Source: Candidatus Altiarchaeota archaeon
Lineage (GTDB): Archaea; Altiarchaeota; Altiarchaeia; IMC4; SCGC-AAA252-I15
Length of the DNA: 64,000 nt
NCBI GenBank assembly: GCA_043800255.1
Contig: JAZDNF010000008.1
Span: 64,001-128,000, forward strand
Direction: 5' to 3'
Under the pieces are notes generated by a model, which did not search any database, was not told the origin of the DNA, and saw nothing but the letters and a program-made list of their open reading frames with translations. Position numbers and translations under genes: made by a program. This document shows, one piece after another, positions 9,504 through 54,460 of this stretch. Position 1 is the first letter of the stretch. Each line of letters starts with the position of its first letter.

Positions 9504-9616
9504 AGCGGACTATCATGTAAGCCTGTCGCAACCCTTTTCCGCCTACGGCGCAAAAGCGTTGACGGAAAAAAGATTGCAGTCAGCTTACGACTCGGGTTCG
9601 AATCCCGACCGGGGCG
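9491..9616 (+). tRNA. tRNA-Asp(GTC) with a 53-nt intron (9529-9581) at 37/38
   Basis: Acceptor GCCCCGG/CCGGGGC, anticodon stem TAAGC/GCTTA, GTC at 9525-9527, T-loop TTCGAAT. BHB helix CTGT/GCAG. Confidence 0.93.
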
Positions 9617-9911
9617 TCCAACCCGTAGACCCAATTTAGGGGCCAACAGAGCCCTGCTCTGTATATTTTTCTAGATTCTTCTTATCATAATTGATGGAAT
9701 TACGCGAGTTAGAATATCTATTTAATTCATATGGGAAGAATGAGACCCCAACTATAGCCTATCGGCTGGGGGAGTATTTCTATGACCATCCTGAGCGTTT
9801 TAAATATCTCCAGATAGCAATCGCTGGCCAGATAATGTTTTTGTATCGGATAACCCAGAAACCCGTATATCCGATACATTAGATATAAACCTGTAAGAAC
9901 TAACTAAAGCC

Positions 9912-10325
9912 CTATCTGAACACGTAAAAAATAGCCACTACCAGCAATTCAAGTACGATTACGCTCCATCTCAAAGCTCCTTTTTTACTATACGTTTTGA
10001 GATAATACACATAAATGAGAAGTAAAAACTGCGATATCAATGGAATGAAAAATCGCTTGTACGTAAAGAGAATGTTCTGGATTATTAACTGCAATACATA
10101 ACCAGCAACAAGCATAGCAAATATATTTAAAAGGAAATATTTGAAACCCTTGTTCAGAGTTTCAAAAGTATTTTTGAACCCTTTTACCCAACCTTTTCCT
10201 CCTGAAAAAAGTAGTCCATCGAAATAAAGAACTATTCCCCCGGCCAATAGGATAGACAAATATGGGATTAATGGATCTATGATGTTGTTAGTATAGTCGA
10301 TAATTTCTACTATCATATTTACCAC
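9912..10325 (-). CDS. Hypothetical membrane protein (about 4 TM)
   Basis: Hydrophobic 137-aa ORF with AT-rich codons. Confidence 0.65.
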   Translation of the reverse strand: MVNMIVEIIDYTNNIIDPLIPYLSILLAGGIVLYFDGLLFSGGKGWVKGFKNTFETLNKGFKYFLLNIFAMLVAGYVLQLIIQNILFTYKRFFIPLISQFLLLIYVYYLKTYSKKGALRWSVIVLELLVVAIFYVFR

Positions 10326-10612
10326 TTGATAACACCATGGAATCTATACTTTTAAACATCTTTTGCCCGTATCTGGACGTACCCTCTCTAGATCTACAAG
10401 GTTCTTATTCTCCAACATTTAAAACCTCTTTTTAAGCGGGAAACACATAGATAGCCGTCAGTGGCAAAATGCTACTGGCATGTAAATAACGTTGCGGATT
10501 TGTAAGCGCTTGATCGGGGCGTCTGGCATTTTCAGCATTATGATGGCTTTTTTAGCCTGTTTTAGGCGGGTTCATTGGGCCGGCAGGGATTTGAACACTT
10601 GGTATGGTTTCA

Positions 10613-10963
10613 CTATTCTTGTTTTTCCAGTTCTTTCAGGAGTTGCTTTAGGGGTGTTTTTATCTCCGGTAGTTTTTCTTGGATTGTTTTCCATATGACA
10701 TCGTAGTCGACTCCGAAGTAGCCGTGGATGATTTTGTCCCTCGTCTTGGCCATGTCGCTCCAGGGGATGGCTTTGTTTTTCTGCCTTATGTCGGATGGGA
10801 CGTTCTTCGCCGCCTCGCCGATTATTTCGAGTTTTCTCACGACGGCGCTGGACGTCTTGTCGTCATCTTGGAACTGGGTTAGGCTCATACCGCCTGTGAA
10901 CGTTTGTATCTGAGCTATGGCTTCCAGGATGTCTTTTATCAGCAAGCTGTGTTTACGTTTCAT
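10613..10963 (-). CDS. HepT-like HEPN RNase toxin (DUF86)
   Basis: LEIIGEAAKNV, IPWSDM and RDKIIHGY (Rx4H-x-Y) motifs; overlaps the MNT stop codon. Confidence 0.9.
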   Translation of the reverse strand: MKRKHSLLIKDILEAIAQIQTFTGGMSLTQFQDDDKTSSAVVRKLEIIGEAAKNVPSDIRQKNKAIPWSDMAKTRDKIIHGYFGVDYDVIWKTIQEKLPEIKTPLKQLLKELEKQE

Positions 10964-11253
10964 ATCATCACTGCCTCGGACAGGATGTTCCTTCGAAGCT
11001 CCGGCCTAATGGCCCCCTTTCTCACCACGTCTACTTTCCTGCCCAATGACCTTCGCAGGCTACCTTCAAGTCTTACCAGTTCGAAAAGATCTGGTGTTGA
11101 TGTGAAGTCGACGAGTATGTCGATGTCGCTGCTTTTCTTCTGCTCCCCGCGCACAAACGACCCGAAGACTCCAATCTCGCGAACACCATACTCCGTATGC
11201 AACTTCGCCTTCCTCTTCTGGAGTATCCGTTTAATGTCGCTTAATTTTTTCAT
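10960..11253 (-). CDS. MntA-like minimal nucleotidyltransferase antitoxin
   Basis: GVFGSFVRGEQ...SDIDILVDF and LGRKVDVV motifs. Confidence 0.9.
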   Translation of the reverse strand: MKKLSDIKRILQKRKAKLHTEYGVREIGVFGSFVRGEQKKSSDIDILVDFTSTPDLFELVRLEGSLRRSLGRKVDVVRKGAIRPELRRNILSEAVMI

Positions 11254-11408
11254 CTCCTATACCCAAGATAATTCTCATCTGGCATCCCAGTAGGAACGCC
11301 AGAGCGCATGTTGTACAGATAAGAATGGTGTGCTTTTCCCTAAAATACTCCGATAGCCCCGCTCTAATTGGATAAATGTGGGCTGAGCCAACAAGGCCTG
11401 AATCTAGC

Positions 11409-11807
11409 CTACCTGCTGGTTTTCATGCTCAGGAGGACAACCAAGGTAACGACGACGCCGTATCCTATGAGCACGTTGACGTAACCCACCTGCCTGCCGA
11501 GGAACAGTAGAACCCCTACGATTAGGGAAAGCAACCCAGTCGTCAGAAACACCATCTCGATGATCGATCGGATGAGAGACCTCTTGACGGCGTAGGCAGC
11601 CTCGATGGCGTTCTCCTTCAGCTCCTCGGCTCGGGCTTCAGTCTCCTCCCTGAAGTCGTCAATCCTCTTCTCGATCTGGTAGACGTGGTCCAGGTAGGAG
11701 ACGAACAGGCGTGCGATGCCGTCAACCACGCCAGCGCCCCTCTCGATGCCATGCGACAGCAGCCCCTCAACAGGTGACCTGTCCTTTTTCGACTTTCTGA
11801 ATCCCAT
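11409..11807 (-). CDS. Small membrane protein (YqjE/holin-like topology)
   Basis: N-terminal helical region plus two C-terminal TM helices; follows a YqjD-like gene. Confidence 0.5.
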   Translation of the reverse strand: MGFRKSKKDRSPVEGLLSHGIERGAGVVDGIARLFVSYLDHVYQIEKRIDDFREETEARAEELKENAIEAAYAVKRSLIRSIIEMVFLTTGLLSLIVGVLLFLGRQVGYVNVLIGYGVVVTLVVLLSMKTSR

Positions 11808-11810
11808 AAT

Positions 11811-12176
11811 CTACTTCCTCAGCTTCCTGACCAGCAACGCGGCTGAGATGGCCGCTATAGTCACCCCAACAGCTGCTGCAGCTGCTGCGGCCGCGGTCTT
11901 GGTCGGATGCTTCCTGACTGTTGTGACAATCCTCTGCTCGGCCTTAGAGATGTCAGCCTTTATCTTCTTCTCGTATTTTTTCTTCTCCCGGTTCCAGTCC
12001 TTGCCGGCTGCACTGACCTTCTTCTTGTACTCTGCCCTCAGCTTATTCTCGAGAACGCTCATATCCTTCCTGACCTTGGACTCGTATTTTTTCAAATCCT
12101 TCTTGGCTATTGCCTGGACCTTTTTGACATTTGCCCTGATCTTCCTCTTCGTAGAACTTTTCACCTTGAAAATCAC
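11811..12176 (-). CDS. Basic helical tail-anchored protein (ElaB/YqjD/DUF883-like)
   Basis: Lys-rich helix, then VRKHP followed by a single C-terminal hydrophobic helix and a basic tail. Confidence 0.5.
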   Translation of the reverse strand: MIFKVKSSTKRKIRANVKKVQAIAKKDLKKYESKVRKDMSVLENKLRAEYKKKVSAAGKDWNREKKKYEKKIKADISKAEQRIVTTVRKHPTKTAAAAAAAAVGVTIAAISAALLVRKLRK

Positions 12177-12227
12177 CTCATTATAGTTAAATGTTACAGT
12201 ATTAAATTATTAAAATAAAAGCAGCTG

Positions 12228-12959
12228 ATGATGATGGAACACTGGAAAGCCTTCAAAAAGCCGTTCGACGACGTCTACAAATTGGCTGTTGGAGTGGCGT
12301 TAAGCAGCATACCGATAGTAAGATGGGTCTCGAAAGGCTACATGCTCGAGAACTCAGGGATCGGGGCAGAAAAGCCTTCAGATGAGATGCCGGGATGGGA
12401 GGACTGGCGGACTCTATGGGTGAAAGGATTCCACGCCGCCCTCATAATGATAGCCTACAATCTGCCTGCGATAATAGTCGGCATCGTGGGAGTGAGCATC
12501 GCATCTGCCGGCCTGATTAGCGCATACTCTGCCATACTGACGCCCGACATCATGGAAGAGATGCGAAGCGGGATGCTGGACTTGAAGACCATAACGGAGC
12601 TGACAGTCTCGAATGCTGAGGCCATTATGCCCCACCTTTACAGGCTGATGCCGGCGGTCGCCATAGCTCTGCTCCTGAAGATAATGGCAAGCATACTGAC
12701 GCCGATAGCAACCCTCCAATACCTTGAGAGGGGGAGGATGTCAGACGCCTTCAAATTCAAGAGAATTCTGAGAGTGGTCGCCAGCCTAGACTATGTCATA
12801 GCATGGTTCACCGTGCAAGCCTATACGATGGTGGCAGGCATCATGTTCGCCATGATCCCGCTGGCAGGATACGGGACAGCATACTTTATAACAGGAATAT
12901 ACGCTTACACAGTATATGGCCAAGTATACCGGAATCAGTCCTCGGATACTGTGATGTAG
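12228..12959 (+). CDS. DUF4013-like membrane protein
   Basis: SSIPIV...KGY, MPGWEDW...KG and AFKF patterns; multiple TM helices. Confidence 0.7.
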   Translation: MMMEHWKAFKKPFDDVYKLAVGVALSSIPIVRWVSKGYMLENSGIGAEKPSDEMPGWEDWRTLWVKGFHAALIMIAYNLPAIIVGIVGVSIASAGLISAYSAILTPDIMEEMRSGMLDLKTITELTVSNAEAIMPHLYRLMPAVAIALLLKIMASILTPIATLQYLERGRMSDAFKFKRILRVVASLDYVIAWFTVQAYTMVAGIMFAMIPLAGYGTAYFITGIYAYTVYGQVYRNQSSDTVM

Positions 12960-13399
12960 ACTACGTCCTTAGCGCCTTCGTTGTAATTCTCAGGCTTCGC
13001 TGTCACATCCACACGATACTTGCCTGGAAGAGAGCCTGTCAGAGCGCGGACGTCGAATTTGACCTTCCTCGACTCCTCAGGACCAATCAGGACGTCACTC
13101 TCGAATGCGTATTTTGTCCCGGACTTGACGAAGACGAAGCTCTCATCGTGGGTCTGCGCTTCGATGCTTATTCGCGCATCCTCGTTCTCGTCCAGGTTTT
13201 TGACCTCAATCTCTATGGTGGAGCGTTCACCGATTTTCACCTTCCCAGGGTCGGCGCTGGCGGTTACGCCGATGTTGCCCTGCACAGAGTACCTTGAAGG
13301 CAGATTCAGCAGGATTAGGGCGACTATGATGATAACCACAAGAAGGGCTAGGACAGAGGTCCAGCGCACCTTCGAAAACAGCCTCTTAAGGTCTTCCAT
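12935..13399 (-). CDS. Membrane-anchored Ig-like secreted protein
   Basis: N-terminal TM helix followed by a beta-rich domain (IEVKN, PGKYRVDV). Confidence 0.6.
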   Translation of the reverse strand: MEDLKRLFSKVRWTSVLALLVVIIIVALILLNLPSRYSVQGNIGVTASADPGKVKIGERSTIEIEVKNLDENEDARISIEAQTHDESFVFVKSGTKYAFESDVLIGPEESRKVKFDVRALTGSLPGKYRVDVTAKPENYNEGAKDVVYITVSED

Positions 13400-13460
13400 G
13401 TCCTATTAGATTAGTATTTCGCGTATAAAAATTATTAACCAACCAATCACAGTAGATGAC

Positions 13461-14150
13461 ATGATAGGAGTTCTGGGTGGGACTGGACTGGCTGACGGGT
13501 TCCTGAGAGAGTACAGGAAGACGAGGATAAAGACGCCCTACGGGACAGTGACCGTATTGAGAGGCGACGACATACTCCTGGTGCAACGCCATGGCGCGGA
13601 CAGGAAGACGCCGCCTCACATGATAAACCACAAGGCGAACGCATACGCCCTCAAAAAAGCAGGCATCTCGACTGTTGTCGGCGTGAACTCCTCAGGGTCA
13701 TTGAAGAGGAACATCAAACCAGGATACTTCGTAGTGCCCCACGACTACATCAACTTCTACAACGTGCAGACATACTATGACAGGACGATAAAGCACATAA
13801 CGCCCGGCCTGAGCGAAGATATCAGGGAGAGGATAATAAAGGCCGCACGAAAGGAGAAGGTCAAATTGGTAGAGAGGGGAGTCTACTTCCAGACGAGGGG
13901 GCCGAGGCTCGAAACCAAGGCGGAAATCAGAATGATAAAAGATTACGCTGACATAATTGGGATGACCATGGGCACCGAGGCGACGCTGTGCAAGGAGCTG
14001 GGGCTGGAGTATGCGTCACTGTGCACTGTGGATAATTACGCTAACGGGATTGCTGACGAGAGGATAGACTTCGAGGAAATCTTCAAGAAGTCGAGGAAAA
14101 AATCCGAGAAAGTGAAGAGGGTATTGTACACCATCGCAGGGGAGCTTTGA
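13461..14150 (+). CDS. MTAP-family purine nucleoside phosphorylase (probable methylthioinosine phosphorylase)
   Basis: IGVLGGTG, RHG, PPHMINHKAN, GPRLETKAE and GMT motifs. Confidence 0.9.
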   Translation: MIGVLGGTGLADGFLREYRKTRIKTPYGTVTVLRGDDILLVQRHGADRKTPPHMINHKANAYALKKAGISTVVGVNSSGSLKRNIKPGYFVVPHDYINFYNVQTYYDRTIKHITPGLSEDIRERIIKAARKEKVKLVERGVYFQTRGPRLETKAEIRMIKDYADIIGMTMGTEATLCKELGLEYASLCTVDNYANGIADERIDFEEIFKKSRKKSEKVKRVLYTIAGEL

Positions 14151-15406
14151 TGAGCATACTGGTAGAGGACGTCCTGGTCGACGGAAAAGAGACCAGCATC
14201 TACGTCGAAGAGAACGTCATAACAGAGGTTGGGAGAAAACACGACGCAGACGTTACCATAGACGGAAAAGGAAAGGCAGCCATACCTGGGCTAATAAACG
14301 CGCACACCCACGCTGCCATGACGTTGATGAGAGGATACGCCGATGACTTGGAACTCCACGACTGGCTTCAGAACCACATATGGCCGCTGGAGGCGAAACT
14401 GAAGGAGGAGGACGTCTACTGGGGCGCGAAACTCGCATGCCTTGAGATGATAAAAACTGGCACAACATGCTTCAACGACATGTACTGGCAGCCGGAGGGA
14501 ACTGCAAAAGCTGCCGAGGAGATGGGCATAAGAGGAGTCATATCAAGCGTGTTCATAGACCTCTTCGACAATAAAAGAGCAGAGGAGCAGATAAGAGAGA
14601 ATGAGAAGCTGATGCCGCGGCTCAGGAAAAGATACTCGGACAGGATTGTCCCGGCCCTGGGGCCGCACGCAGTCTACACGGTCTCGAAGGACAGTCTGGA
14701 TTGGATCAGAGAATACTCGCAGGAGAACAACACGCTCATCCACTTCCACCTCGCTGAAACGAGGAAGGAGAACGAGGACTGCCTGAAGCGGAACGGGAAA
14801 AGGCCGATACCATACCTCGATGGGATAGGCTTCCTAACTGACAAACTGGTAGCCTGCCACAGCGTCTGGCTGACGAAGGACGAGATCAGGACGATGGCTA
14901 AACACAACGTTAAGGTCGCCAACAACCCCACGTCGAATATGAAACTTGCGACTGGGGGGGTCATAGCATACCCTCAGATGAAAGCTGCCGGGATGACTGT
15001 AGCATTGGGAACAGACGGCTGCGCGTCAAACAACAACCTGGACATGTTCGAGGCGATGAAATTCGCATCACTGCTGCAGAAAGCCCACCTGTGGGATCAG
15101 ACGGTGATGCCGGCGAAGGAAGCCTACCAGATGGCAACGACAGAGGGAGCTAAAGCCCTGAACCTCAATGCAGGAGCCATAGAAGAGGGCAAACTGGCTG
15201 ACATAATCCTGATAGACCTGAAGAGGCCGGAGCTGACGCCGCACTATAACATCCACTCTGACCTGGTTTACGCTGCAAACGGATCATGCGTTAACACGAC
15301 AATATGCGATGGAAAAGTGCTCATGGAGGACAGAAGAGTGGAGGGGGAGGAGAAGATAATGGAGAAGGCTTCAGAGGTCGCTAAAAAATTGGTGAAAAAT
15401 GCTTGA
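14147..15406 (+). CDS. 5'-deoxyadenosine/MTA/SAH deaminase (DadD/MtaD family)
   Basis: NAHTH, HFHLAET and LGTDGCASNNNLDM amidohydrolase motifs; context with MTAP and hpt. Confidence 0.85.
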   Translation: MMSILVEDVLVDGKETSIYVEENVITEVGRKHDADVTIDGKGKAAIPGLINAHTHAAMTLMRGYADDLELHDWLQNHIWPLEAKLKEEDVYWGAKLACLEMIKTGTTCFNDMYWQPEGTAKAAEEMGIRGVISSVFIDLFDNKRAEEQIRENEKLMPRLRKRYSDRIVPALGPHAVYTVSKDSLDWIREYSQENNTLIHFHLAETRKENEDCLKRNGKRPIPYLDGIGFLTDKLVACHSVWLTKDEIRTMAKHNVKVANNPTSNMKLATGGVIAYPQMKAAGMTVALGTDGCASNNNLDMFEAMKFASLLQKAHLWDQTVMPAKEAYQMATTEGAKALNLNAGAIEEGKLADIILIDLKRPELTPHYNIHSDLVYAANGSCVNTTICDGKVLMEDRRVEGEEKIMEKASEVAKKLVKNA

Positions 15407-15962
15407 AATGCTGAAAAAATCATTGGAAGAGGCGCCTGTGATGAAACGCGGAGAATACAGCTACTTCATACACCCTCTCACGGACGCAATACCCAGAATA
15501 CAGCCTGAACTCCTGGACGAGGTCGCGGAGGCAATCATAGAAAACTCTGAGATGGACGTTGACACGATACTGACGATGGAGGCCATGGGAATCCACATCG
15601 CAGCCGCCATCAGCCTGAAGACAGGCCTGCCGTTCAACATCATAAGGAAGAGGGAATACGGCCTGCCGGGAGAGGTCGTGCTGGACCAGAGCACAGGCTA
15701 CAGCAAGGGGAAGATGTACATCAACGACATCCGCAAGGGAGACAAGGTGACCATAGTGGATGCAGTGATAAGCACTGGCGGGACACTCAACGCGGTCATA
15801 AAAGGGCTTGAGAGGATTGGAGCGGAGATAAAAGACATAATATGCGTCATCGAGAGAGGAGACGGCGTGAAAAAAGTAATGAAGGAGACAGGTTACAAGG
15901 TAAAGACTCTAGTCAAGATAGAGGTTGACGGGAACGTCAAAATAGTGAAGTCAATAGGCTAA
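15399..15962 (+). CDS. hpt: Archaeal hypoxanthine/guanine phosphoribosyltransferase
   Basis: YSYFIHPLTD, EAMGIH, RKREYGLPGE, TGYSKG and VDAVISTGGT motifs. Confidence 0.88.
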   Translation: MLEMLKKSLEEAPVMKRGEYSYFIHPLTDAIPRIQPELLDEVAEAIIENSEMDVDTILTMEAMGIHIAAAISLKTGLPFNIIRKREYGLPGEVVLDQSTGYSKGKMYINDIRKGDKVTIVDAVISTGGTLNAVIKGLERIGAEIKDIICVIERGDGVKKVMKETGYKVKTLVKIEVDGNVKIVKSIG

Positions 15963-16138
15963 GGCAGCCTGTCCAGAAGGTCATCGGGGACGCTGTCAAC
16001 CTTCCTGCCCTGCAGGCACTCCCTGCAGATACCGCCAACAGTGATATCGTTGGGGCAGACCCGCCTGCCGCACAGAGGGCAGGTTAGCAGCTGCTTGGCT
16101 GCGTCACCGCATATGTCGCACAGCCCCGCCGAATTCAT
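15959..16138 (-). CDS. Small zinc-finger protein, 59 aa (absent from the ORF track)
   Basis: Hand translation MNSAGLCDICGDAAKQLLTCPLCGRRVCPNDITVGGICRECLQGRKVDSVPDDLLDRLP. Starts immediately after the upstream stop. Confidence 0.8.
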   Translation of the reverse strand: MNSAGLCDICGDAAKQLLTCPLCGRRVCPNDITVGGICRECLQGRKVDSVPDDLLDRLP

Positions 16139-16139
16139 C

Positions 16140-16562
16140 TTAGCTTGCTTTTTTGAACTTGAGCTGCTCCGGCTTCACCTCAACCTTGGGAAGCTGCATC
16201 GGAGGCGGAAGCTGCAGCTTTCTGGCTATCTCAAGAGACTCCAGGAGGGATTCCCTGACGATTGCAGTCGAAATCTCGGCCACAACGTCCTTCTTCAGCT
16301 CGATACTGTCCTTCGACACCTTGATCATCTTCTCAAGCTCAGAGTTAACGTACCAGAGTCTGCCCTGTACTAGAATGTTCCCGATGTCAGGCTCGTAGTT
16401 GACATCATACTTGAAGGCGACTACAAGATGGTCGCCTATGTTCTTGTCCTTCTCCTTCTTGATGGAGGATATCGTCGACCTCGCGTTAGCCGTAACCCTG
16501 TCCTTGACATCCCCCTTCCGCTCCCCGCTAATCTTCTCAATCTTGATGTTCAGAATTGGCAT
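16140..16562 (-). CDS. Conserved archaeal hypothetical protein
   Basis: MPILNIKIEKISGER...LQLPPPMQLPKV; co-oriented between scpA and the zinc-finger gene. Confidence 0.7.
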   Translation of the reverse strand: MPILNIKIEKISGERKGDVKDRVTANARSTISSIKKEKDKNIGDHLVVAFKYDVNYEPDIGNILVQGRLWYVNSELEKMIKVSKDSIELKKDVVAEISTAIVRESLLESLEIARKLQLPPPMQLPKVEVKPEQLKFKKAS

Positions 16563-16610
16563 AGTATCACCGTGTAGCATATATTAGAAGGTCGGATATA
16601 AAAGTCACCC

Positions 16611-17318
16611 TCAGTCGAGGAACGGGTTACTTCTTATGTAGATTTCGCCGAAGAGCTTCTCCTGCCGCAGGTGAACCTGCTCCCTGTTGGAGAGGTGCAG
16701 AAGCGAAAGGAATGTCGAGATTATCTCCCGTTTGGTCTTAGCGAGCTCGGAGAATAGAACAACCTCCTTCTTCGTCAGTAGATCGAGAACCCGGGTGTAC
16801 GTCTCCTCTATTATGGTGTTAAGGTCGAACTCCTCAGACAGCACCAGGACGTTCAACTCCGGCTCATTCGCGGACTCGAAAAGCCTGCTCTTCTTCACAG
16901 AGTACTCTAAGAGGGCCTTCTCTATGGCCCCGATAAGCTCCTCAGCCGTGACCCGCCGCGTTATGACCCTCTTAGGCTTCAGCCCGAACTCCAGCTCGTC
17001 GAGGCCTGCACCGGTGAAGCTCGAATAGTCCGGAATCTCCTCCCCGAAGAAGTACTGGAAGGATGCTGCCAGCTCATTGTAGGGCTCCTTTTCCACTGGG
17101 TTGAGTATGTCAGCCTTCATCCTGAGGAGGACACTAGAAACGAGCACAACATTCGCGGGAATCCTGAAGTTCATCTCCCGCATCTCCTGAACCCGCTTAG
17201 AGTACCGTGTCGCAAGCTCCGAGAGGTCAATATCCCAGGGGTTGCTCTCCTTTATCACTTCGTAGAGTATGTCCCTCCACGTCAGGTCTTCCGATTCGAT
17301 AAGGGTGTCAAAGTCCAT
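16611..17318 (-). CDS. scpA: Segregation and condensation protein A (kleisin)
   Basis: NPWDIDL, SVLLRMKAD and STFLSLLHL...QEKLFGEIYI motifs. Confidence 0.85.
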   Translation of the reverse strand: MDFDTLIESEDLTWRDILYEVIKESNPWDIDLSELATRYSKRVQEMREMNFRIPANVVLVSSVLLRMKADILNPVEKEPYNELAASFQYFFGEEIPDYSSFTGAGLDELEFGLKPKRVITRRVTAEELIGAIEKALLEYSVKKSRLFESANEPELNVLVLSEEFDLNTIIEETYTRVLDLLTKKEVVLFSELAKTKREIISTFLSLLHLSNREQVHLRQEKLFGEIYIRSNPFLD

Positions 17319-17427
17319 CCTAGAATGATATCACATCAGCCAAAAAACACCCTAGTAGTATATGCACTCCCAGCCTTAAAAACGGAGGGCCTTGTTTTTT
17401 ATCCTCAGTAGTAATAAGTTATGGTGA

Positions 17428-21632
<4,205 letters not shown>

Positions 21633-26702: not shown

Positions 26703-26703
26703 G

Positions 26704-26777
26704 TGGGCCCAGCCGGATTCGAACCGGCGATCTTCGCCTCGTAAAGGCGACGTCATAACCAGCTAGACTATGGGCCC
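26704..26777 (-). tRNA. tRNA-Val(TAC), intronless
   Basis: GGGCCCA...TCGCC-TT-TAC-GA-GGCGA...GCCGG-TTCGAAT-CCGGC-TGGGCCC-A. Confidence 0.96.
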
Positions 26778-32527: not shown

Positions 32528-32623
32528 TCTTGGGGGATGCGGCCGACCTTTGGTCGGGCGCGTGTCGAACCTTTAGGTCGCCACATAGAACAACTTTCTT
32601 TCTTACAAGAAAGAAAGGGGTCT
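32528..32623 (-). other. Hairpin cluster in the tRNA-Ile2 trailer, bounded by a degenerate 3'-end copy
   Basis: CTTTCTTTCTT-GT-AAGAAAGAAAG (near-copy of the intron hairpin) and CGACC-AAA-GGTCG (shared with the Val trailer). Ends in GCCGCATCCCCCAAGA versus the tRNA end GCCGCAGGCCCAAGA. Confidence 0.65.
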
Positions 32624-32757
32624 TGGGCCTGCGGCGATTCGAACGCCGGACCACTCGATCTCTCCAACCTTCTTTCTTTTCGCGAACGTTTTCTTTCTTC
32701 CTAAGAAAGAAAAGGTTCTATGAGTCGAGCGCTCTGACCAGTCTGAGCTACAGGCCC
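32624..32757 (-). tRNA. tRNA with CAT anticodon, probably Ile2, with a 59-nt intron (32660-32718) at 37/38
   Basis: Acceptor GGGCCTG/CAGGCCC, anticodon stem CTCGA/TCGAG, T-loop TTCGAAT. The GGGCC start fits archaeal Ile2 better than initiator or elongator Met. Confidence 0.88.
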
Positions 32758-45698: not shown

Positions 45699-45762
45699 GA
45701 AGGTTTTGTTTTACAACCAATTGCACACTATTTTTATACGAAATGTAATAACTTTAGACAAA

Positions 45763-46818: not shown

Positions 46819-46820
46819 GC

Positions 46821-47024: not shown

Positions 47025-47203
47025 GATAGGATATACACAATACTACGATAAAAATCATATGACCTGGCATGTCAAGAACCATCAGCCTCTGAGAGGAGGC
47101 AGGTAATGTGGTTCTTGGCAGAAGATTTCCACGCCAGTCTATAGATTGGTGGAAATCTTGGATTTATATTGTGTGGTCGTATCTTTAATACACGGTGCAT
47201 GAG

Positions 47204-47689
47204 ATGGCTGACGATTTGCGCATTCTGGAGCTGCTTGAGGAGAACGCTGGCCTGACGGAGGATGAGATAGCGAAGATGCTGGACGAGAATCCTGCTAAAG
47301 TGAGGAAAAGCATCACAGACCTCAAAAAGAGGAAGATCATCCTGAAGTCCAAGGCGATAGTAGACTGGAAGAAGGCAGGCAGGCCTTACGCGACGGCTGC
47401 GATACAGATCAAGGTGGTGCCGCAGGAGAGGGCAGGGTTCGCGAGGATATGCGAGACGCTGGCTAAGGACAATAGGGTTACTGACGTGTTCGTGGTCACA
47501 GGAGAGTACGACCTCCTCATCATGATAAGAGCCGAGAGCCTGGAGGAGGTAAGCGACTTCGTCACCGAAAAGCTGGCCCCGAAGAGGGAGGTTGTCGGAA
47601 CCTACACTCACATCATAATGAGCGAGTACAAGAGGGACGGCGCAGCAATATCGAACGACAAGGCCAAGAGGCTTGCCGTCTCCATCTAA
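47204..47689 (+). CDS. Lrp/AsnC-family transcriptional regulator
   Basis: N-terminal HTH and VTGEYDL RAM domain; paired with an aminotransferase. Confidence 0.88.
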   Translation: MADDLRILELLEENAGLTEDEIAKMLDENPAKVRKSITDLKKRKIILKSKAIVDWKKAGRPYATAAIQIKVVPQERAGFARICETLAKDNRVTDVFVVTGEYDLLIMIRAESLEEVSDFVTEKLAPKREVVGTYTHIIMSEYKRDGAAISNDKAKRLAVSI

Positions 47690-47697
47690 CGGAGAAA

Positions 47698-48849
47698 ATG
47701 ATTTCTAAACGGGTTAAAAGCATACCCTACTCAGGTATCAGGAGGTTCTTCGAACTGGTTGAGCAGAGCGAGGACGTCGTAAGCCTGGGAGTGGGAGAGC
47801 CTGACTTCCCCACGCCTGACCCTATGAAGGAGGCGGGCATCATGGCGATAGAGAGGGATTACACGTCGTACACCTCGAATTACGGGATACTGGAGCTGAG
47901 GGAGAGGATAGCAGACAAACTTAGGAGGGAGAACGGCATCAGAGTCGATCCGAAGAATCAGGTGCTCATAACGACCGGGACCAGTGAAGCATTAGACCTG
48001 GTGTTCAGGGCGGTATTGGAGCCTGGAGACGAGGTCATAGTCCCGGAGCCGTCTTACGTGTCATATAAGCCGTGCGTGTGGTTCACCCACGCGAATCCAG
48101 TGCCAGTTCCGACATCGGAGGAGAATGAGTTCAGGGTGAGGGCAGAGGACATCGAAAAGAGGATAACGAAGAAGACGAAGGCAGTAATAGTTGCGTCACC
48201 TAACAATCCCACCGGGAGCGTCCTGGGCAAAAAGGACCTGAAGCAGATAGCAGACGTCGCATTGGAGCATGACCTCCTCGTAGTGTCAGACGAACTTTAC
48301 GAGTACCTCATATACGACAAGACTAAACACTACAGCATCGCATCCTTCAAGGGGATGGAAGACAACGTCGTGACCATAAACGGCTTTTCAAAGGGATGCG
48401 CGTTCACAGGCTGGAGGCTAGGCTACGCATGCGGCCCTTCCGAGATCATAGAAGCGATGATGAAGATACACCAGTACAGCATGCTCTCAGCGCCGTCCAT
48501 CTCGCAGTATGCTGCATTGAAGGCGTTCGATTGCAAGAAGCATGTCAGGAGCATGGTCGCAGAATACGACAGGAGGAGGAAGCTGCTCGTGAAGGGTTTG
48601 AATGAGCTAAAGGGCATAAGCTGCATCATGCCGAAGGGCGCCTTCTACGCGTTCCCCAACATCAGGGAAACACGTATGTCGTCTGAGGATTTCGCGCAGA
48701 GGCTCCTGAAGGAGGCCGGTGTTGCAGTAGTCCCAGGCTCAACCTTCGGGGACTCGGGCGAAGGATACGTCAGATGCTCATACTCTGTTTCCAAGGAGAA
48801 CATAATAGAGGCCCTGGTGAGGATGGAAAGGTTCGCCTCAAAGCTCTGA
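47698..48849 (+). CDS. Class I/II PLP-dependent aminotransferase
   Basis: GEPDF, PNNPTG, SDELY and FSK..AFTGWRLG motifs. Confidence 0.92.
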   Translation: MISKRVKSIPYSGIRRFFELVEQSEDVVSLGVGEPDFPTPDPMKEAGIMAIERDYTSYTSNYGILELRERIADKLRRENGIRVDPKNQVLITTGTSEALDLVFRAVLEPGDEVIVPEPSYVSYKPCVWFTHANPVPVPTSEENEFRVRAEDIEKRITKKTKAVIVASPNNPTGSVLGKKDLKQIADVALEHDLLVVSDELYEYLIYDKTKHYSIASFKGMEDNVVTINGFSKGCAFTGWRLGYACGPSEIIEAMMKIHQYSMLSAPSISQYAALKAFDCKKHVRSMVAEYDRRRKLLVKGLNELKGISCIMPKGAFYAFPNIRETRMSSEDFAQRLLKEAGVAVVPGSTFGDSGEGYVRCSYSVSKENIIEALVRMERFASKL

Positions 48850-48896
48850 AGTTGAACAATATCTGATTTTTAGTTCTCGGATGGCCTATATCATAC

Positions 48897-50549
48897 ATGC
48901 CAGACGCTAAGCCGAAACAACGTATAAGAGACGGTAAAGCATGGCAGACTGTAGAAGGACTCCCTGAGATTCTAAGCGTTAAGGAGGAGAGGAGGAGCAC
49001 CATAAGAAAGCGTGAAGGCGAATGGTATAAGCAAGAGAGGGGCAAATACGGGGTATACGACGATAACGTAAGGGCTTGGACGCACGCAACGCACGTTTCC
49101 CACGCCAAAGAGGAATTTCTGGTCTACCCTACGCAGATAAGGGAGAAGGACAGAACCTCCGAGGAAAGGGTTTATTCTAATGCTATCGCGGTAGACAGCA
49201 TAACCACAGGCGAGAGGTATACTTTATATGAGACTTGGTTTGACAGGACAGGCCGCGGAGAAGTCAGCGAAAAAGACGCTAACCCCGACAAGCACATCAG
49301 AAAATGGACTCTCAGGGGCGGGCCGAAGGACATGTACGCAGGCGCAAGGAAGAGGACGAACTTCCTGCTTAACCCTGATGACGGCATAATAGAGGCCAGG
49401 TCCAGGACATCGGGCGAGACCAGAACCGACTTCGTGCTTGGCGGCAACCTGACGAGCGACGAGAGAAGATTCTTCATAGGCGGCTTCACGACGACGATAG
49501 GATACTGGGAGAAACAGTATCAGATGCTGAAGGACAGCGTACAGCTCTTAACCTATAGGATTAGAGGGCATGACGTCACAAGAGCCGGGAGGCAGATGGA
49601 AGACCCGACAGAGTATCTGGGAAACATCACCAAGAAGCCGGAAGCCTATCTGAAACACTGCGCAAATGACATTGGAGTAGCAATAGACGAGAGCAATAGG
49701 ATTCTGAGGATACTGCCGGTACTTTCAAAAGCGTCTCAGGAGAGCGATGACATACCAGGCGAGTTCAAATTCGCTGACACTAGGAGAACGAACAAGGCTA
49801 AAACAGTAGAGCAGGTTGACCTGATAGGCCACAGCATGGGAGGCATGATCGCAAGGAAATCCATAGTAGACAACCCAGATCACGTCAAGAGCCTGACGCT
49901 CGTCTGCTCGCCGCCGGACAGAGTACTGCTGAGGGACGTTAAAGCCCTGAGCATAGTCTCCGGGCTGCCTGCGAGCGTGCCGATACCGACAGGCGTGAAA
50001 GTGGGGGCGTATGTCGGAGCCAGAATCGTCTGGGACATGCTACCCAAGAGTGTCGGCAGGTCGATAGGAACCAGTCTCGCCACGGCAGGACTGTGGACGC
50101 TGAAAAAGCTGGCAACTTCGGCTGCGATAAGGAACAGTTTGAACGTAGGCTACAGGGCTCAGGCGGCGATCAGGGGGACTAAGGCCATGGACTGGGAGCA
50201 GTTCGACACGTACATAGGAAAATTCCGGCAGACTCCAGCGTATACACTCCAGCACGCCCTCAAGGCCATGGCATCCTTCAACCCTAAAAGCTTCCGCGAA
50301 TTCGCAAAATCGCTGGAATGCACCACCCCGATAATGATAGTCGCTGGGGGCAGGGACTCGATAGTGGACCCAGCGGACTGCGAGAATGAAGCGAAGGACA
50401 TAGGAGCGCTTTTCGTGAGCTTCACGAACTGCGATCATGGCCTCCCCATGGAGGAGCCGGAGCTGTTCCATGATGTGACCGAAGAGTTCATAAGGACCGG
50501 CAACGTCACTCCACAGGATGGGATAGAAGTCAGAGACTACAGGAAGTAG
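48897..50549 (+). CDS. Alpha/beta hydrolase with a long unique N-terminal region
   Basis: GHSMGG nucleophile elbow, GGRDSIVD and CDHGLPME. Confidence 0.75.
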   Translation: MPDAKPKQRIRDGKAWQTVEGLPEILSVKEERRSTIRKREGEWYKQERGKYGVYDDNVRAWTHATHVSHAKEEFLVYPTQIREKDRTSEERVYSNAIAVDSITTGERYTLYETWFDRTGRGEVSEKDANPDKHIRKWTLRGGPKDMYAGARKRTNFLLNPDDGIIEARSRTSGETRTDFVLGGNLTSDERRFFIGGFTTTIGYWEKQYQMLKDSVQLLTYRIRGHDVTRAGRQMEDPTEYLGNITKKPEAYLKHCANDIGVAIDESNRILRILPVLSKASQESDDIPGEFKFADTRRTNKAKTVEQVDLIGHSMGGMIARKSIVDNPDHVKSLTLVCSPPDRVLLRDVKALSIVSGLPASVPIPTGVKVGAYVGARIVWDMLPKSVGRSIGTSLATAGLWTLKKLATSAAIRNSLNVGYRAQAAIRGTKAMDWEQFDTYIGKFRQTPAYTLQHALKAMASFNPKSFREFAKSLECTTPIMIVAGGRDSIVDPADCENEAKDIGALFVSFTNCDHGLPMEEPELFHDVTEEFIRTGNVTPQDGIEVRDYRK

Positions 50550-50594
50550 AAAGAGCAGGTATTTTAATCCTATTCCCATTTTTTATTCCAGATC

Positions 50595-53408
50595 ATGGCT
50601 GAAGAGGTTGATTTCAAAAATGTCGAGGAGAAGTGGCTGAAAAATTGGGAGGACTCTAAAGCCTTCCAGTCGAACCCAGACGGCAGGGAAAGATTCTATA
50701 TCACCGTAGCCTACCCCTACCCTTCTGGTAGCATGCACGTCGGCCACGCGCGCACTTACACTGTGCCTGATGTCATAGCCCGCTTCAAGCGCATGCAAGG
50801 CTATAACGTCCTGTTCCCCATGGCCTGGCATGTGACTGGCACTCCCATAATAGGCGCAGTCAACAGGCTGAAAAACAGGGAGGAAAAGCAGCTCAGGATC
50901 CTGAAGGAAGTGTGCGGCGTCTCGGAATCTGACTTGAAGCAGATGGAGACACCCATGGGCTACGCCCGCTATTTCATAGAGAACCACTACTACGCGTCAA
51001 TGAGACGGCTCGGGTATACCATAGACTGGAGGCGGCAGTTCACCACAAACGACAAGCACTATAACATGTTCGTCACCTGGCAGTACCTGAGCCTGCACAA
51101 GAGGGGGCTCCTGAAGGAGGGACTGCATCCCGTGAAATACTGCCTCCATGACAGGAACCCGGTGACAACCCACGACCTCCTTGAGGGGGAGGATGCTGAC
51201 ATCCAGGAGTTCACGCTCCTGAAGTTCAAATTCGACAAGGAGTATCTGATTGCCGCGACACTGAGGCCTGAGACGGTGTTCGGGCAGACTAACATGTGGG
51301 TCGGCCCGGACATAGAGTATGTAAAGGCTAAAGTCGGGAGCGAGAGTTGGATAATAAGCGAACAGTGCGCGAAGAAGCTAGAACTCCAGGGCAAGAAAGT
51401 CGAAGTTACGGGGAAGGTTAAAGGCTCCAGCTTGATAGGAGAGTACTGCACCGCTCCCGGAATAAAAAGGGACATAATAATCCTGCCATCAGGGTTCTGC
51501 GACCCTGCGATCGGCTCAGGCCTCGTGACATCGGTGCCGAGCGACGCGCCCTACGACTGGATGGGCTTGAAGGATTTACAGGAGAACAATGAGCTATGTG
51601 AGAAGTACGGCCTCGACTGGAACAAGGTAAAGAGCATAGAGGTCATACCAATAATAAGGACAGAGGAGTTTGGCGACAGGGCAGCCTTGAAAGTCTGCGA
51701 GGATATGGGAATAACAAGCCAGAAGGACACTAAAAAGCTCGAAGAGGCGACGAGCATAGTCTACAAGACCGGCTTCCATTCCGGCGTCATGAACGAGAAC
51801 TGCGGCAGATACAAGGGCATGGCAGTCGTCAGGGCGAAGGAGAAGGTAAAAGAAGAGCTCCTCGAGAACGGCGAAGCAGACAAGATGCTCGAATTCTCCG
51901 AAAAAGTCAGGTGCAGGTGCGGCGGAGATGTGGTGGTCGCGAACGCGGAATCATGGTTCGTCGACTACAGCAACGAAGACTGGAAAGAGGTTACAAGAGC
52001 GGCCATAGGGCAGCTTAACACGATACCTGAGAAGACCAAGCAGGAGTACCTTAACACGGTCGACCGGATGCACCCTTGGCCGTGCATCAGGAACTTCGGT
52101 CTCGGAACCAGACTGCCGATCGACGACAGGTTCATGATAGAGCCGCTCTCCGATTCCACGATATACATGGCCTACTATACGATATCCCACATCCTGAAGG
52201 AATTGAAGCCGGAGCAGCTGTCTGAGGAGTTCTTCAGCTATGTCTTCAGGAACGAGGGGAAACCTGATGAAGTCAGCAAGAGAACAGGCATCAAGCTTGA
52301 GACGCTAAAAAAGATAAAGGAAAGCTTCGACTACTGGTACCCGCAGAACTGGAGGTGCTCGGCCTTGGAGCTGATACAGAACCACCTCACGTTCATGATG
52401 TACCACCACACAGCCCTCTTCAACGCGGACAAATGGCCTCGGGGGATAGCAACCTTCGGGATGGGCCTGCTGGAGGGGCAGAAGATGTCCTCTTCGAAGG
52501 GGAATGTCGTCCTCCTAAAGGACGCGATCGTAAAACACGGCGCAGACGTCATTAGACTGTTCCTCATGGGCAACGCCGAGCCTTGGCAGGATTTTGACTG
52601 GAGGGAGAGTTTCGTCCAGAGCACCTCCAAAAAGATGAGGAACTTCTATGAGATGGTATCGGAGCCAAAGGGCAGCGACCTGGAAGTGAGGGACATCGAC
52701 AGGTGGCTTCTCTCAAGGCTTAACAGGACAATCAAGGGAACGACAGAGTCTCTGGAGATATTCCAGACGCGGAAGGCATTGCAGCAGGCGTTCTATGAGA
52801 TGTTCGGGGACATCAACTGGTACATGAGGAGAGCTGAACCTAACCGGAAGGCCCTCTCCAGAGTCTACCACGCCTGGGTCAGGCTGATGGCACCGTTCAC
52901 CCCCTTCATCTGCGAGGAGCTGTGGAGTAGGATGGGAGAGAAAGGCTTCATCTCCAACGCAGAGTACCCGAAACCCGATGAGAGCCTGATAAACCCAGAA
53001 ATAGAGGCCATCGAGAGCATGATACAGGCAGTGATGGATGACGTGCAGAACATACTTGACGTCACCAAGGTGACGCCGAAGACAATCCACCTTTACGTCG
53101 CTCCGGAATGGAAGCGGAAAGTCTATAATGCGATAGCAGACAACAGGGGGATGAAGGAGCTGATGGCCGACCCTGAGCTGAAAAAATACGGCAAAGAGAT
53201 TGCCAACATCATGAAGAAGAGGAGGGATGAGCTTCCCAGGACGATTGCCACATCATCAAGGGAAAAGCAGGCCCTGGATGATGCTGTTGGATTCTTGGAA
53301 GAGGAGTTCAGCTGCCAGTTCAAAGTCCACGAGAAAGCTGACTTCGACCCTGAGGGCAAGGCTAGATACGCTCTGCCTGCGAAGCCAGGCATCTACATAG
53401 AATCCTAG
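50595..53408 (+). CDS. leuS: Leucyl-tRNA synthetase (archaeal type)
   Basis: [28 protein letters not shown] and KMSSSKGN motifs. Confidence 0.96.
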
Positions 53409-54163
53409 GATGCCGACGCGTCAATGCAGTCTTCCGCGAAATCGCGTATGACACCCAGATCAAGTTTGCCCTTCTTTGACTGAAGGTTGCTGGGGCAGAA
53501 CAGCTGCGGGACGGTGCCGATGTCATAGTAGCCTGCAGCGCACTCTGGAAGCCGGTCAGATGAGTCTCCCATCAGTATCCTCCTGACAGTGTAAGGTTTC
53601 CCCTCATAGTCCAACTCCGCCAGCTCACCCAAGTACTCATCCACCTCATCGCATCCGGGGCAGTTCATGGAATAGTAGTAGATTATAGTATCAGCCCCTA
53701 TCCCATATTTTGAGAAGCACTCACCAGCATTCCCAATGTTAGCCCTCAGGACTTCACATGCCTTTTCATTGAATGTGAGAGTGCACAGCGCCTCCGCAAT
53801 ATTATGCTTGCTCCTCGCTATCGTAAGATACGCCCTCCCCTTGTAGACAACATACAGTGAAGGATTATAGACCGTGTCCGAGATGACGGGATTGATGGGA
53901 ACATCGAACTCAGAGCCTATGGAATCCAAAACCTGAGCATCACCGTAAAACGTGTCACAATCCTCGCAGGTCGGCGGAACCCTCTTCGAACAGTCAACGC
54001 ACCTGCCAGGATACATGTAGAACACCCCCACATCATCAGAATAATTATAGGAGAACGGAAGCCCCCCATCCGGATTCAAGAAAAAAGCCTGATAAATCCT
54101 AAAACCCAAGACGAAACCGACCAAAGTCAACAACACAATCATCAACGCAGTCTTAGTCTTCAT
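53405..54163 (-). CDS. Membrane-anchored Cys-rich thioredoxin-like protein
   Basis: N-terminal TM helix, CxxC motifs (CVDC, CEDC, CPGC) and VPQLFC. Confidence 0.6.
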
Positions 54164-54250
54164 CTTTTTTTACCATAATACCACTATAGGTATACCAATT
54201 TGTAACCACACTATAAAAAGTTACAAAACCAGATAATACAAAGATAACAC

Positions 54251-54331
54251 AATGCCAGGGTGGCAGTCAAACCTCGCCTCAAAAAAGGCTCAGACCCGCC
54301 ACCCCAGAAGAATAAAATGCCGGGGTGGCGG
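54251..54331 (+). repeat. Imperfect direct repeat of the tRNA-Ser 5' end plus an antisense copy
   Basis: AATGCCAGGGTGGC (54251-54264) versus AATGCCGGGGTGGC (54316-54329). CCGCCACCCC (54296-54305) is the exact complement of 54322-54331. Confidence 0.75.
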
Positions 54332-54460
54332 AGCACGGTTCATCGCGCAAGCCTGGAACAACCTTTTCCCGCCCCTCACGGGGCGGCAAAACGTTAACGA
54401 AAAGAATACAGCCAGCTTGTCGTCCATGCGGCGGCTTGGGTTCAAATCCCAACCCCGGCG
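54319..54460 (+). tRNA. tRNA-Ser(GGA) with a 55-nt intron (54359-54413) at 37/38
   Basis: Acceptor GCCGGGG/CCCCGGC, anticodon stem CAAGC/GCTTG, GGA at 54355-54357, long variable arm, TTCAAAT loop. Confidence 0.92.

Follow-up and report, generated by a model that had tools for sequence, protein, structure and literature searches.

The window analysed here is a stretch of 64,000 nucleotides from Candidatus Altiarchaeota archaeon (assembly GCA_043800255.1, contig JAZDNF010000008.1, positions 64,001 to 128,000). It contains tRNA genes with the anticodons GTC (Asp), CAT and GGA (Ser), each with a canonical intron, and a hairpin at position 9443 in the leader of the tRNA-Asp gene. The three introns and the leader hairpin are members of one family of structured repeats of 30-60 nt, termed E. 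All three introns sit one base past the anticodon, at the canonical position 37/38 (aragorn -i, checked by eye). The CAT tRNA is called Met by aragorn; from the likeness of its anticodon arm to that of a tRNA with the anticodon GAT it is predicted to be Ile2. An earlier sequence-only reading of the window had quoted four strings, for the Asp, Ser and Ile2 introns and for the leader at 9443, and all four were found where it had put them. The features are listed in Table 1.

Read from the 5' end, E opens with N1-N2-A-C and a single C, followed by a pyrimidine arm that is rich in T and has one to three C. A loop of 0-4 nt, or in its place an inserted G+C hairpin, connects this arm to the complementary purine arm, after which come a single C, G-T-N2'-N1', a linker A-C-G (rarely GCG or ATG) and a purine foot. 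N1-N2-A-C and G-T-N2'-N1' form an outer stem of 4 bp with a conserved C·C mismatch inside. The anatomy was determined on 97 copies; of the 107 parsed, 10 were set aside for long or odd inserts or for a start other than CC. The 97 copies comprise 23 parsed sites of this genome and copies from relatives, the latter picked by a pattern in which the linker and the first part of the foot are fixed while the 5' arm is free. In 96 of these 97 simple-hairpin copies the pairs of N1N2A with TN2'N1' are all Watson-Crick, in 9 sequence combinations, and the stem triplets are AAC/GTT (75), CAC/GTG (19), GAC/GTC (2) and an unpaired AAC/GTG (1). A MAFFT alignment of the first 22 copies misaligned the 5' arms and was dropped; the seed of the covariance model, R1, was formed by 11 copies of equal length. 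In the resulting model alignment (134 matches from 100 loci) 98.5% of the cells are paired, compared to 86.0% in shuffles, double-sided changes occur in 12 of 13 pairs, and 218 cells are double-changed, compared to 63 in shuffled alignments (0 of 500 shuffles match). Partners slid by 1-3 columns pair in 58-79% of the cells. The z-scores of single-copy folds are modest (-1.9 to -3.7).

Read in parallel, the foot is complementary to the 5' arm (identity 0.979, Jaccard index of the G positions 0.90 in the 97 copies) and is therefore the mirror of the purine (3') arm. Shuffled feet gave a Jaccard index of 0.35±0.03, with 0 of 2000 reaching the observed value, and a model of the foot as a direct repeat gave 0.15, or 0.61 at the best shift. 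When the shuffles were made within classes of equal first run and only the distal G positions were scored, the observed value was 0.81, compared to 0.39±0.04 (0 of 2000). There are 30 distinct run patterns among the copies. The run lengths of the foot follow the order of the 5' arm, so that an arm T5-C-T3 has the partner A3-G-A5 and the foot A5-G-A3, and where the 5' arm starts with one more C, the purine arm ends and the foot starts with one more G. The C count and first-run state agree across the three strands in 93 of the 97 copies. The mirror rule is followed by 69 of 78 unique copies, in which purine arm and foot make up a homopurine-homopyrimidine mirror repeat with a short spacer. The sequence-only reading had claimed that the outer pairs covary above a conserved, unpaired CGAAAA foot. 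The covariation holds in the larger set of copies; the foot is conserved as well, not as a fixed CGAAAA but as a longer purine tract mirroring the 3' arm. Both features exceed the T-run/A-run bias of hairpins in shuffles, to which they might otherwise have been attributed.

A purine arm with a mirrored purine tract is the classic H-DNA-type mirror repeat. On one strand of E the pyrimidine arm, loop, purine arm, linker and mirrored purine tract follow each other, with the same order and polarity as in a purine·purine-pyrimidine triplex formed within one molecule. Because no copying process makes mirror repeats, a contact of three strands is proposed, and E is predicted to form a triplex. Like H-DNA and designed purine-motif triplexes, E has a homopurine mirror repeat with a short spacer and a third segment antiparallel to the purine arm, and changes from T·A·A to C·G·G co-occur in E. 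It differs from them in the 4-bp outer stem between arm and foot, which is absent from the textbook design, and in being known from sequence alone. Antiparallel pairing of the foot with the 5' arm was considered as the cause of the repeat and rejected; it explains part of the fold energy but predicts a direct rather than a mirrored repeat. Likewise, the ACG linker and the outer stem were considered as a bulge-helix-bulge site of their own, and this was dropped since the 5' strand offers a single C instead of the required 3-nt bulge.

In the window, a gapped pattern of stem and foot gave 3 matches, compared to 0.00 expected (100 shuffles); the Asp copy escaped this pattern by one extra C/G. In the Asp and Ser(GGA) introns N1 is the first base of the intron. 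The copy in the CAT tRNA has the arm T4-C-T3-C-T2 and the mirrored foot A4-G-A3-G-A2, and a GGTT after it can pair with AACC at the start of the intron. The leader copy folds into a hairpin of -11.2 kcal/mol (z -1.86), and its perfect CAGCC/GGCTG stem lacks the C·C mismatch. It is preceded by a fragment of the tRNA-Asp gene, the identical 14 nt of which (13 without the preceding T) are found again at 9490-9503, and a TATA-like box lies before the fragment at about 9408-9419. This arrangement is the same as in other loci in which a gene fragment, E and a gene follow each other. The short form found in the leader is 97% identical in two other genomes (G026 and G003), and in G026, which belongs to another family, it is again located between a 5' tRNA fragment and a full tRNA. 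The gene for tRNA-Asp has neither an intron nor an upstream copy in three genomes (G012, G024, G028), carries the same E intron without the leader copy in G010, and has a different intron in G001. The sequence-only reading had taken the leader copy as extragenic. It does lie outside the intron; it is not free-standing, being part of a tRNA leader beside a duplicated gene fragment.

Table 1. Features of the window (positions in the window) and further sites of genome G000 (contig:positions).
Feature	Position	Strand	Evidence or remark
Direct-repeat copy 1: T and nt 1-13 of tRNA-Asp (5' gene fragment)	9426..9439	+	Sequence reading
Short form of E (leader hairpin); perfect CAGCC/GGCTG stem, T4/A4 arms, GCG linker, AAAAG foot	9443..9471	+	Reading, pattern, folding
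Tail between leader E and tRNA-Asp gene	9472..9489	+	Reading; holds ACACTA, complementary to the repeat-end TAGTGT
tRNA-Asp(GTC) gene, canonical intron 9529-9581 (53 nt)	9491..9616	+	aragorn -i; Rfam tRNA 46.5 bits on L006
E copy in Asp intron, CCC/G/G subtype, G+C-rich inner hairpin	9529..9572	+	Model R1, 32.8 bits
Pyrimidine/purine hairpin without linker or foot, partial E-like trailer	32594..32620	-	Reading; 4 nt past the 3' end of the CAT tRNA
tRNA(CAT) gene, canonical intron 32660-32718 (59 nt)	32624..32757	-	aragorn -i
E copy in CAT-tRNA intron	32670..32718	-	Pattern, nhmmer, model; folding z -2.31
tRNA-Ser(GGA) gene, canonical intron 54359-54413 (55 nt)	54319..54460	+	aragorn -i, reading
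E copy in Ser(GGA) intron, G+C-rich inner hairpin	54359..54406	+	Pattern, nhmmer; folding z -3.65
Second intron family	C11:63260-63444 (just left of window); C5:9242-9427; C5:18255-18417; C11:41966-42128; C7:37011-37171
Two-hairpin module after E	C11:63290-63360; C13:42535-42600	-	Sequence reading

The splice junctions were inspected in the three introns. The CAT intron has a CTC/GAG helix, 3-nt bulges and an AACC/GGTT helix, the Asp intron has CTGT/GCAG including a G·U pair, and the Ser(GGA) intron has 3 bp only, the second helix being absent. A clean bulge-helix-bulge motif was not reproduced by minimum free energy (MFE) folds. In the Asp and CAT introns AACC near the start can pair alternatively with GATT or GGTT near the 3' end of the intron, which places a helix beside the 5' splice bulge. 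The single stem that the sequence-only reading saw as common to the introns is thus a stem of the family, but it is not the sole fold of the CAT and Asp introns, because there it competes with the splice-site helix.

Across the genome, nhmmer found 22 copies of E at E-values below 1e-6 in the assembly of 1.75 Mb. Model R1 gave at least 29 matches at E-values of 0.01 or less, with 150 of 2043 candidates scored, and these 29 do not include the copies of the Ser(GGA) intron and of the leader. None of the Rfam matches to six E-bearing loci (E-value up to 1) fell on E, these being tRNA and weak C/D sRNA matches only. E forms the core of nine canonical introns of this genome, those of tRNA-Leu(TAA), Leu(TAG), Gly(TCC), Cys, Ser(GCT), Thr(TGT), Asp, CAT and Ser(GGA). 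Identity among the nine ranges from 62 to 93% across isotypes; the CAT intron is 93% identical to that of Leu(TAG), 90% to Gly(TCC), 88% to Cys, 86% to Thr, 72% to Asp and 62% to Ser(GGA), and the Asp and Ser(GGA) introns are 81% identical. Identities of at least 70-80% across isotypes are thus reached within the genome, though not by every pair. Introns of different tRNAs do share one motif, as the sequence-only reading had stated, and its statement that the motif also exists outside introns was confirmed in tRNA trailers and leaders, behind C/D sRNAs, next to protein genes and, opposite in strand, at tRNA 3' ends. The discriminator base is where E starts in tRNA-Gly(TCC), Phe, Thr(TGT), Leu(GAG) and Glu; E also lies upstream of the tRNAs for Asp, Glu, Arg(GCG), Thr(TGT) and a Met, and is found on the opposite strand beside tRNA-Arg(TCT).

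The 107 parsed copies comprise 33 trailers, 18 introns, 9 copies up to 150 nt upstream of a tRNA and 47 others, many of the latter being at tRNAs missed by aragorn, at C/D sRNA ends and at gene fragments. In 20 of 30 trailers N1 is at position -2 or -1 of the tRNA end given by aragorn, which makes the discriminator base the first base of the outer stem. For introns, the distance of N1 from the start of the intron is -1 to +2 in 16 of 18. In trailers and introns alike, an RNA processing site thus falls at the 5' edge of E. E and the neighbouring tRNA are on the same strand in 66 of 72 pairs.

Exact duplications of gene ends flank a part of the copies. The 80 nt before E were sought again within the 260 nt after it, for 103 of the 107 copies (four were too close to the end of the locus). 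Exact direct repeats of at least 14 nt flank 32 of the 103 copies, compared to 3 of 576 mismatched-pair controls, and the same kind of repeat flanks 9 of 47 copies with an all-Watson-Crick stem in named records. The layout is constant: the repeat, 0 to 6 nt, E, 4 to 170 nt, and the repeat again. The repeats are gene ends of four kinds: nt 1 to 13-31 of a tRNA that is present intact downstream; the first 19-54 nt of an open reading frame (ORF), likewise intact downstream; the final 14-19 nt of a tRNA behind a trailer copy, where adjacent paralogous tRNAs may account for some cases; and, four times, a reverse-complemented tRNA 3' end that reaches as far as the T-loop. The D, anticodon or T loop is where the tRNA fragments terminate. 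Between E and the intact gene, loci of the 5' class mostly hold, by reading, a TATA-like box at promoter distance from that gene. Microhomology at the junctions was seen by eye at some loci (the sRNA, Asp, L160) and not at others, and is uncounted. The locus with a perfect repeat of 54 nt (G038) has an orthologue without E and without the fragment in the congener G033. The fragment with E is regarded as a novelty in G038 because the stretch between E and the gene is the native upstream region.

The linker-plus-foot pattern matches 29 of the 41 genomes of the order, in seven families, and its reversed control matches none; the carrier genomes have 1-13 raw matches each, with overlapping matches counted twice. 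Model R1 matches 52 of the 61 genomes of the phylum, with at least 1-36 copies each. In named species genomes, 52 of the 117 stretches listed show parsed arms, core and foot, and 45 of the 52 carry at least one copy with an all-Watson-Crick outer stem. Among these matches 51 of 52 are archaeal by title, the remaining one being bacterial and imperfect; the bacterial stretches listed fit the chance expectation. The archaeal titles among the matches listed are Methanophagales/ANME-1, Syntrophoarchaeum, Hydrothermarchaeaceae, Iainarchaeum, Micrarchaeota, Aenigmatarchaeota, Nanoarchaeota, Altiarchaeota/Altiarchaeales and untitled archaea. Where the title is Iainarchaeum or Nanoarchaeota, E again forms the intron at 37/38, in tRNA-Ser(GGA) (with four tandem copies in one case), Ser(GCT) and Thr(TGT), and it is also found in Ser(GGA) in an untitled archaeon. 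L183 and L190 are two named records of other lineages with a 37/38 copy in Ser(GGA).

Several further observations concern E and its surroundings. A long form is present in many relatives (for example L023, L025, L027, L028, L031, L032; also G000 C8:132990-133030), in which a second hairpin, GGAATTT-stem-loop-stem-AAATTC with covarying stem bases, follows straight after the foot. A conserved module of two hairpins, each with compensating stem changes, comes after E both upstream of a Met tRNA and next to tRNA-Arg(TCT), and a similar GGCCG...CGGCC hairpin lies 3' of tRNA-Arg(TCG). Bare hairpins comparable to that behind the CAT tRNA are found 3' of tRNA-Val(GAC) and tRNA-Cys elsewhere in this genome. 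A box C/D sRNA (G000 C13:11500-11900, L011; weak match to Rfam sR2 at L011:127-181) is bracketed by E, with a 28-nt copy of its own 5' end and E before it and, after it, a tandem duplication of its last 14 nt, E and the 5' leader of the next ORF. In L268 (G021:C185:2050-3150), six tandem units of about 132 nt, each consisting of an AT-rich promoter-like part, nt 1-30 of tRNA-Lys and E, precede a complete tRNA-Lys(TTT). A gene whose product begins like S-adenosylhomocysteine hydrolase, which is presumably its family (AhcY-like), shows a 5' coding fragment, E and the intact gene in three genera (G000 C16:37700-38000 on the minus strand, L078, L096); by codon reading the 72-nt fragment in G000 differs from the gene mainly at synonymous sites. 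Elsewhere, other genes show the same kind of duplicated ORF start. In L118 (G010:C75) a second copy of the 3' part of tRNA-Asp follows the gene, its T-loop interrupted by about 85 nt of hairpin-rich DNA. In L135, L159 and L188, titled Methanophagales or Halobacteriota (ANME-1), E, in a uniform T4-C-T4 subtype, follows the same conserved non-tRNA sequence of 25 nt.

A second intron family was seen in five tRNAs (a Met, a Glu, the tRNA with the anticodon GAT, Arg(TCG) and one more). It consists of a pyrimidine/purine hairpin, a fixed linker of 10 nt (GGTGCTTCAC, in one copy GTGCTTCAT), a C-run and a purine tract, which by reading also mirrors the purine arm of the hairpin. The isotypes given by aragorn look wrong for two of these genes ('Stop', and 'Ser' where the anticodon loop reads GAT). 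Two further tRNA genes lie in the window, tRNA-Tyr(GTA) at 7491-7615 with a canonical intron of 49 nt outside the E family, and tRNA-Val(TAC) at 26703-26777 without an intron. The latter was the only tRNA detected in the window by ARAGORN without intron mode and by Rfam at the gathering threshold. In the whole genome the Rfam tRNA model gave 13 matches, 11 of them above the cut-off, and was unhelpful for genes with several introns. About 31 tRNA T-arms were found in this assembly, which is 93% complete. Several copies lie within 60 nt of contig ends (among them G040:C18:21-72, G038:C41:13-56, G039:C67:23-66, G017:C30:55-110); assemblies may break at tRNA loci through the repeat, which may also conceal tRNA genes.

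From the family, its covariation, the three-strand rule, the positions, the flanking duplications and the distribution as observed, E is read as a non-autonomous, triplex-capable DNA insertion or recombination element that is tolerated only where RNA processing removes it and that is the source of these introns; the chances that this reading is right are put at about even. The element would spread, or be captured at breaks, by means of an enzyme that acts on it, and would leave duplicated gene ends alongside. It would survive only in parts of transcripts that are discarded, namely in a trailer from the discriminator base on, in a leader or between the cuts of the splicing endonuclease, where its removal by RNase P, RNase Z or the splicing endonuclease would render it harmless. 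A copy landing at 37/38 with a tail that forms a bulge-helix-bulge site would be a tRNA intron, and E would be the stock from which such introns are supplied. The suggestion of the sequence-only reading that copies outside tRNAs point to the source of the introns is in keeping with this to the extent that E bears on the source; the direction, from gene flank to intron, is a proposed one. What favours the insertion-element reading is the duplications, the presence of copies next to ORFs and opposite in strand, the T-runs inside nine introns and the patchy spread across phyla with near-identical cores; moreover, a stop signal requires no covarying stem and no mirrored foot. A fuller version is offered tentatively and is rather doubtful, according to which E represents a novel type of mobile element in archaea, a fold-back unit of single-stranded DNA that has no protein and whose hairpin is clamped by a third, mirrored purine strand; it would move or be captured at breaks near highly transcribed genes, duplicate gene ends, cross phyla and deliver protein-spliced tRNA introns.

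Several explanations compete with that of an insertion element. Chance resemblance through the low-complexity bias of T-run/A-run hairpins, for which the low complexity of the arms and the modest z-scores could be cited, is excluded by the covariation and mirror statistics, the pattern matches in the window and in the 29 carrier genomes against none for their controls, and the almost purely archaeal set of architecture-bearing stretches. The main alternative, possible if doubtful, is that E is a cis-element of the host belonging to stable-RNA units, a 3'-end formation module directly after tRNAs, C/D sRNAs and other small RNAs, which would act as a bidirectional stop through the oligo-T of both strands, as a platform for a processing factor, or as both; introns and leaders would then carry E through trailer-plus-leader joints of split, permuted or tandem genes, and the duplications would be side effects of a structure-prone site. 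It draws its weight from the dominance of trailers, which are the commonest class of parsed copies with more among the 'other' copies, from the deep conservation of the core across the whole phylum and further, and from the enzymes searched for in this genome, among which no Y1 transposase, no reverse transcriptase and no surplus of integrases were found. It also agrees with N1 being the discriminator base, with copies after the box D ends of C/D sRNAs, with bare T/A hairpins of like kind behind other tRNAs and with the orientation shared by E and its neighbouring tRNA. A T-run terminator within nine introns of this genome would, however, abort the tRNA, a genome has only some 20-30 copies while many tRNAs are without one, and the covarying outer stem and the mirrored foot are needless for a stop signal. 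Nor does such a module account for copies before protein genes beside duplicated 5' coding fragments, or for those on the opposite strand beside tRNA 3' ends.

Two other routes explain why the repeats start exactly at gene boundaries but lack enzymes or cargo. It is very unlikely that the loci are integration scars of larger mobile elements that bring a replacement gene end, E being a leftover attachment region. The direct repeats do run from inside the gene exactly to its boundary, as in classical tRNA attachment sites, four of them reach the T-loop of a reverse-complemented tRNA, the synonymous divergence of the 72-nt AhcY-like fragment is what another allele would show, and a published model, as far as its accessible text goes, derives tRNA fragments and a new intron from integration (PMC3293823). 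The DNA between the repeats is, however, just 45-250 nt long and free of genes, a site-specific integrase would refuse so many different target genes, this genome has one tyrosine recombinase, no viral contig examined contains E, and the intron and plain trailer copies are without such repeats. Very unlikely as well is a spread via RNA, in which tRNA ligase would join excised E introns or trailers to 5' pieces of cleaved tRNAs or mRNAs and a DNA copy would recombine beside the source gene. The fragments begin where the mature or primary RNA has its 5' end (-9 to +1) and, in tRNAs, end in the D, anticodon and T loops, which are sites of RNA cleavage; the 5' edge of E is at RNA processing sites, and antiparallel pairing of the foot with the 5' arm could self-prime. 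Against this wholly inferential model stand the lack of any match to the reverse transcriptase family in this genome, the absence of an encoded CCA at the junctions inspected, and the reverse-strand class, whose repeats start at the tRNA 3' end and break the 5'-end rule.

The insertion-element reading itself has to be held against several points. No match to the Y1 transposase family (PF01797) or to reverse transcriptase (PF00078) was found in the 93%-complete genome, other transposase families not being searched, and the tyrosine recombinase family (PF00589) gave a single match. E has no terminal inverted repeats, its inverted repeat being internal, and the flanking repeats of 13-54 nt are unlike a transposase footprint; they start at -9 to +1 of the gene boundary, which is tighter than random insertion followed by selection predicts. 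The comparison of G038 with G033 is not one of a clean filled and empty site, a difference of 3.4 kb being present upstream besides. Among viral contigs 20 pattern matches were obtained, none with the architecture of E, so that no vector is seen. The near-identical core across phyla and the prevalence of trailers fit a conserved host function equally well. With respect to the triplex, the foot retained by copies with a G+C inner hairpin (Asp, Ser, Glu leader) is no mirror of this hairpin, and because of this a full triplex would not be needed for persistence or splicing. The 4-bp outer stem would sit awkwardly between arm and foot, the third strand having to follow right after it. All-RNA purine-motif triplexes are considered unstable, and a weak triplex is to be expected if the active form of E is RNA. 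MFE folding sometimes favours antiparallel pairing of the foot with the 5' arm (Asp copy, CAT pre-tRNA). Finally, the 134-match alignment is fitted to the model, and its numbers measure consistency rather than independent events; since the copies are related by descent, the shuffle tests overstate independence.

Integron attC sites and REP palindromes are structured single-strand hairpins with little conservation beyond AAC...GTT-like triplets and a fixed unpaired position, and they occur at gene ends, at times amplified in tandem with a cassette. E shares with them a structured hairpin, the location at gene ends and the tandem units, and its AAC...GTT-like triplets may correspond to the boxes that close the imperfect hairpin of attC sites; it differs in that its junctions are at the 5' edge and not inside GTT, and in its purine foot, which has no counterpart in them. 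An integron integrase or RAYT-type gene was not found among the families searched, there were no arrays of ORF cassettes in the loci inspected, and the lone tyrosine recombinase is on a contig different from those of the E copies listed. Like miniature inverted-repeat transposable elements (MITEs), E is short, non-coding, multi-copy, structured and flanked by direct repeats; unlike them it lacks terminal inverted repeats, its flanking repeats vary in length, and no related transposase was found among the families searched.

In Thermoproteales, near-identical short introns are shared by tRNAs of different isotypes within one genome (Fujishima et al. 2010), according to the accessible parts of PMC4033280, PMC4090602 and a 2026 preprint (section 2.5). 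The same texts suggest that these introns spread at the level of DNA and persist only within the limits of the bulge-helix-bulge requirement. E resembles them in the sharing of introns across isotypes, here at 62-93% identity. It differs in being abundant outside introns too (trailers, leaders, sRNA ends, beside ORFs), in its covarying structure, mirrored foot and gene-end duplications, and in its occurrence in other phyla. The comparison with Thermoproteales made in the sequence-only reading therefore serves as an analogy only, the E-bearing records being titled Altiarchaeota, ANME-1 and DPANN groups. Of these records, the ones most similar to relatives of the genome analysed have Altiarchaeota in their titles, and its lineage is not Thermoproteales. 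The leaders of split and tri-split tRNAs match introns of related species (Fujishima 2009), according to the accessible parts of PMC10714607 and PMC4033280. E has in common with them an intron-like sequence in leaders or trailers of tRNA pieces, from which it appears that introns and flanks interconvert; the genes beside E are complete, in contrast, and the tRNA pieces are redundant duplicates next to the full gene. In the model of Sugahara 2012 (PMC3293823, available text), integration of a mobile element yields tRNA fragments and the gain of an intron, with intervening DNA of 1.8 kb that encodes a recombinase. Both situations show a 5' tRNA fragment upstream of the full gene as a direct repeat, tied to intron gain; in the present case the intervening DNA has 45-250 nt, is non-coding and is built around E. 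Already in print, as judged from the accessible portions of these sources, are the cross-isotype intron families with movement at the DNA level, the intron-like leaders of split tRNAs, and tRNA fragments made by integration. No description of E, its extragenic copies, the three-strand rule or the gene-end duplications was found in the literature, although Fujishima 2010 and its supplements may mention extragenic copies; likewise, no description of E in genomes titled Altiarchaeota, ANME-1 or DPANN and no paper combining Altiarchaeota with tRNA introns were found.

The route by which introns arrive in archaeal tRNA genes is called unknown in the accessible parts of PMC4090602 and of the 2026 preprint (section 2.5); copying, mobile elements and reverse transcription were tested in Asgard archaea in the latter, as far as it was available, and no general route emerged. 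E makes the origin of archaeal tRNA introns directly testable. One and the same element is seen as intron, trailer, leader and duplication joint in the same genomes, so that intermediates of intron gain can be searched for directly; the joints with E include perfect repeats of 54 nt and a six-fold tandem array. The three-way covariation from T·A·A to C·G·G is unusual for a natural nucleic-acid element and can be tested with oligonucleotides. The element also explains why tRNA finders miss genes in the lineages that carry it, and possibly why assemblies break at tRNA loci.

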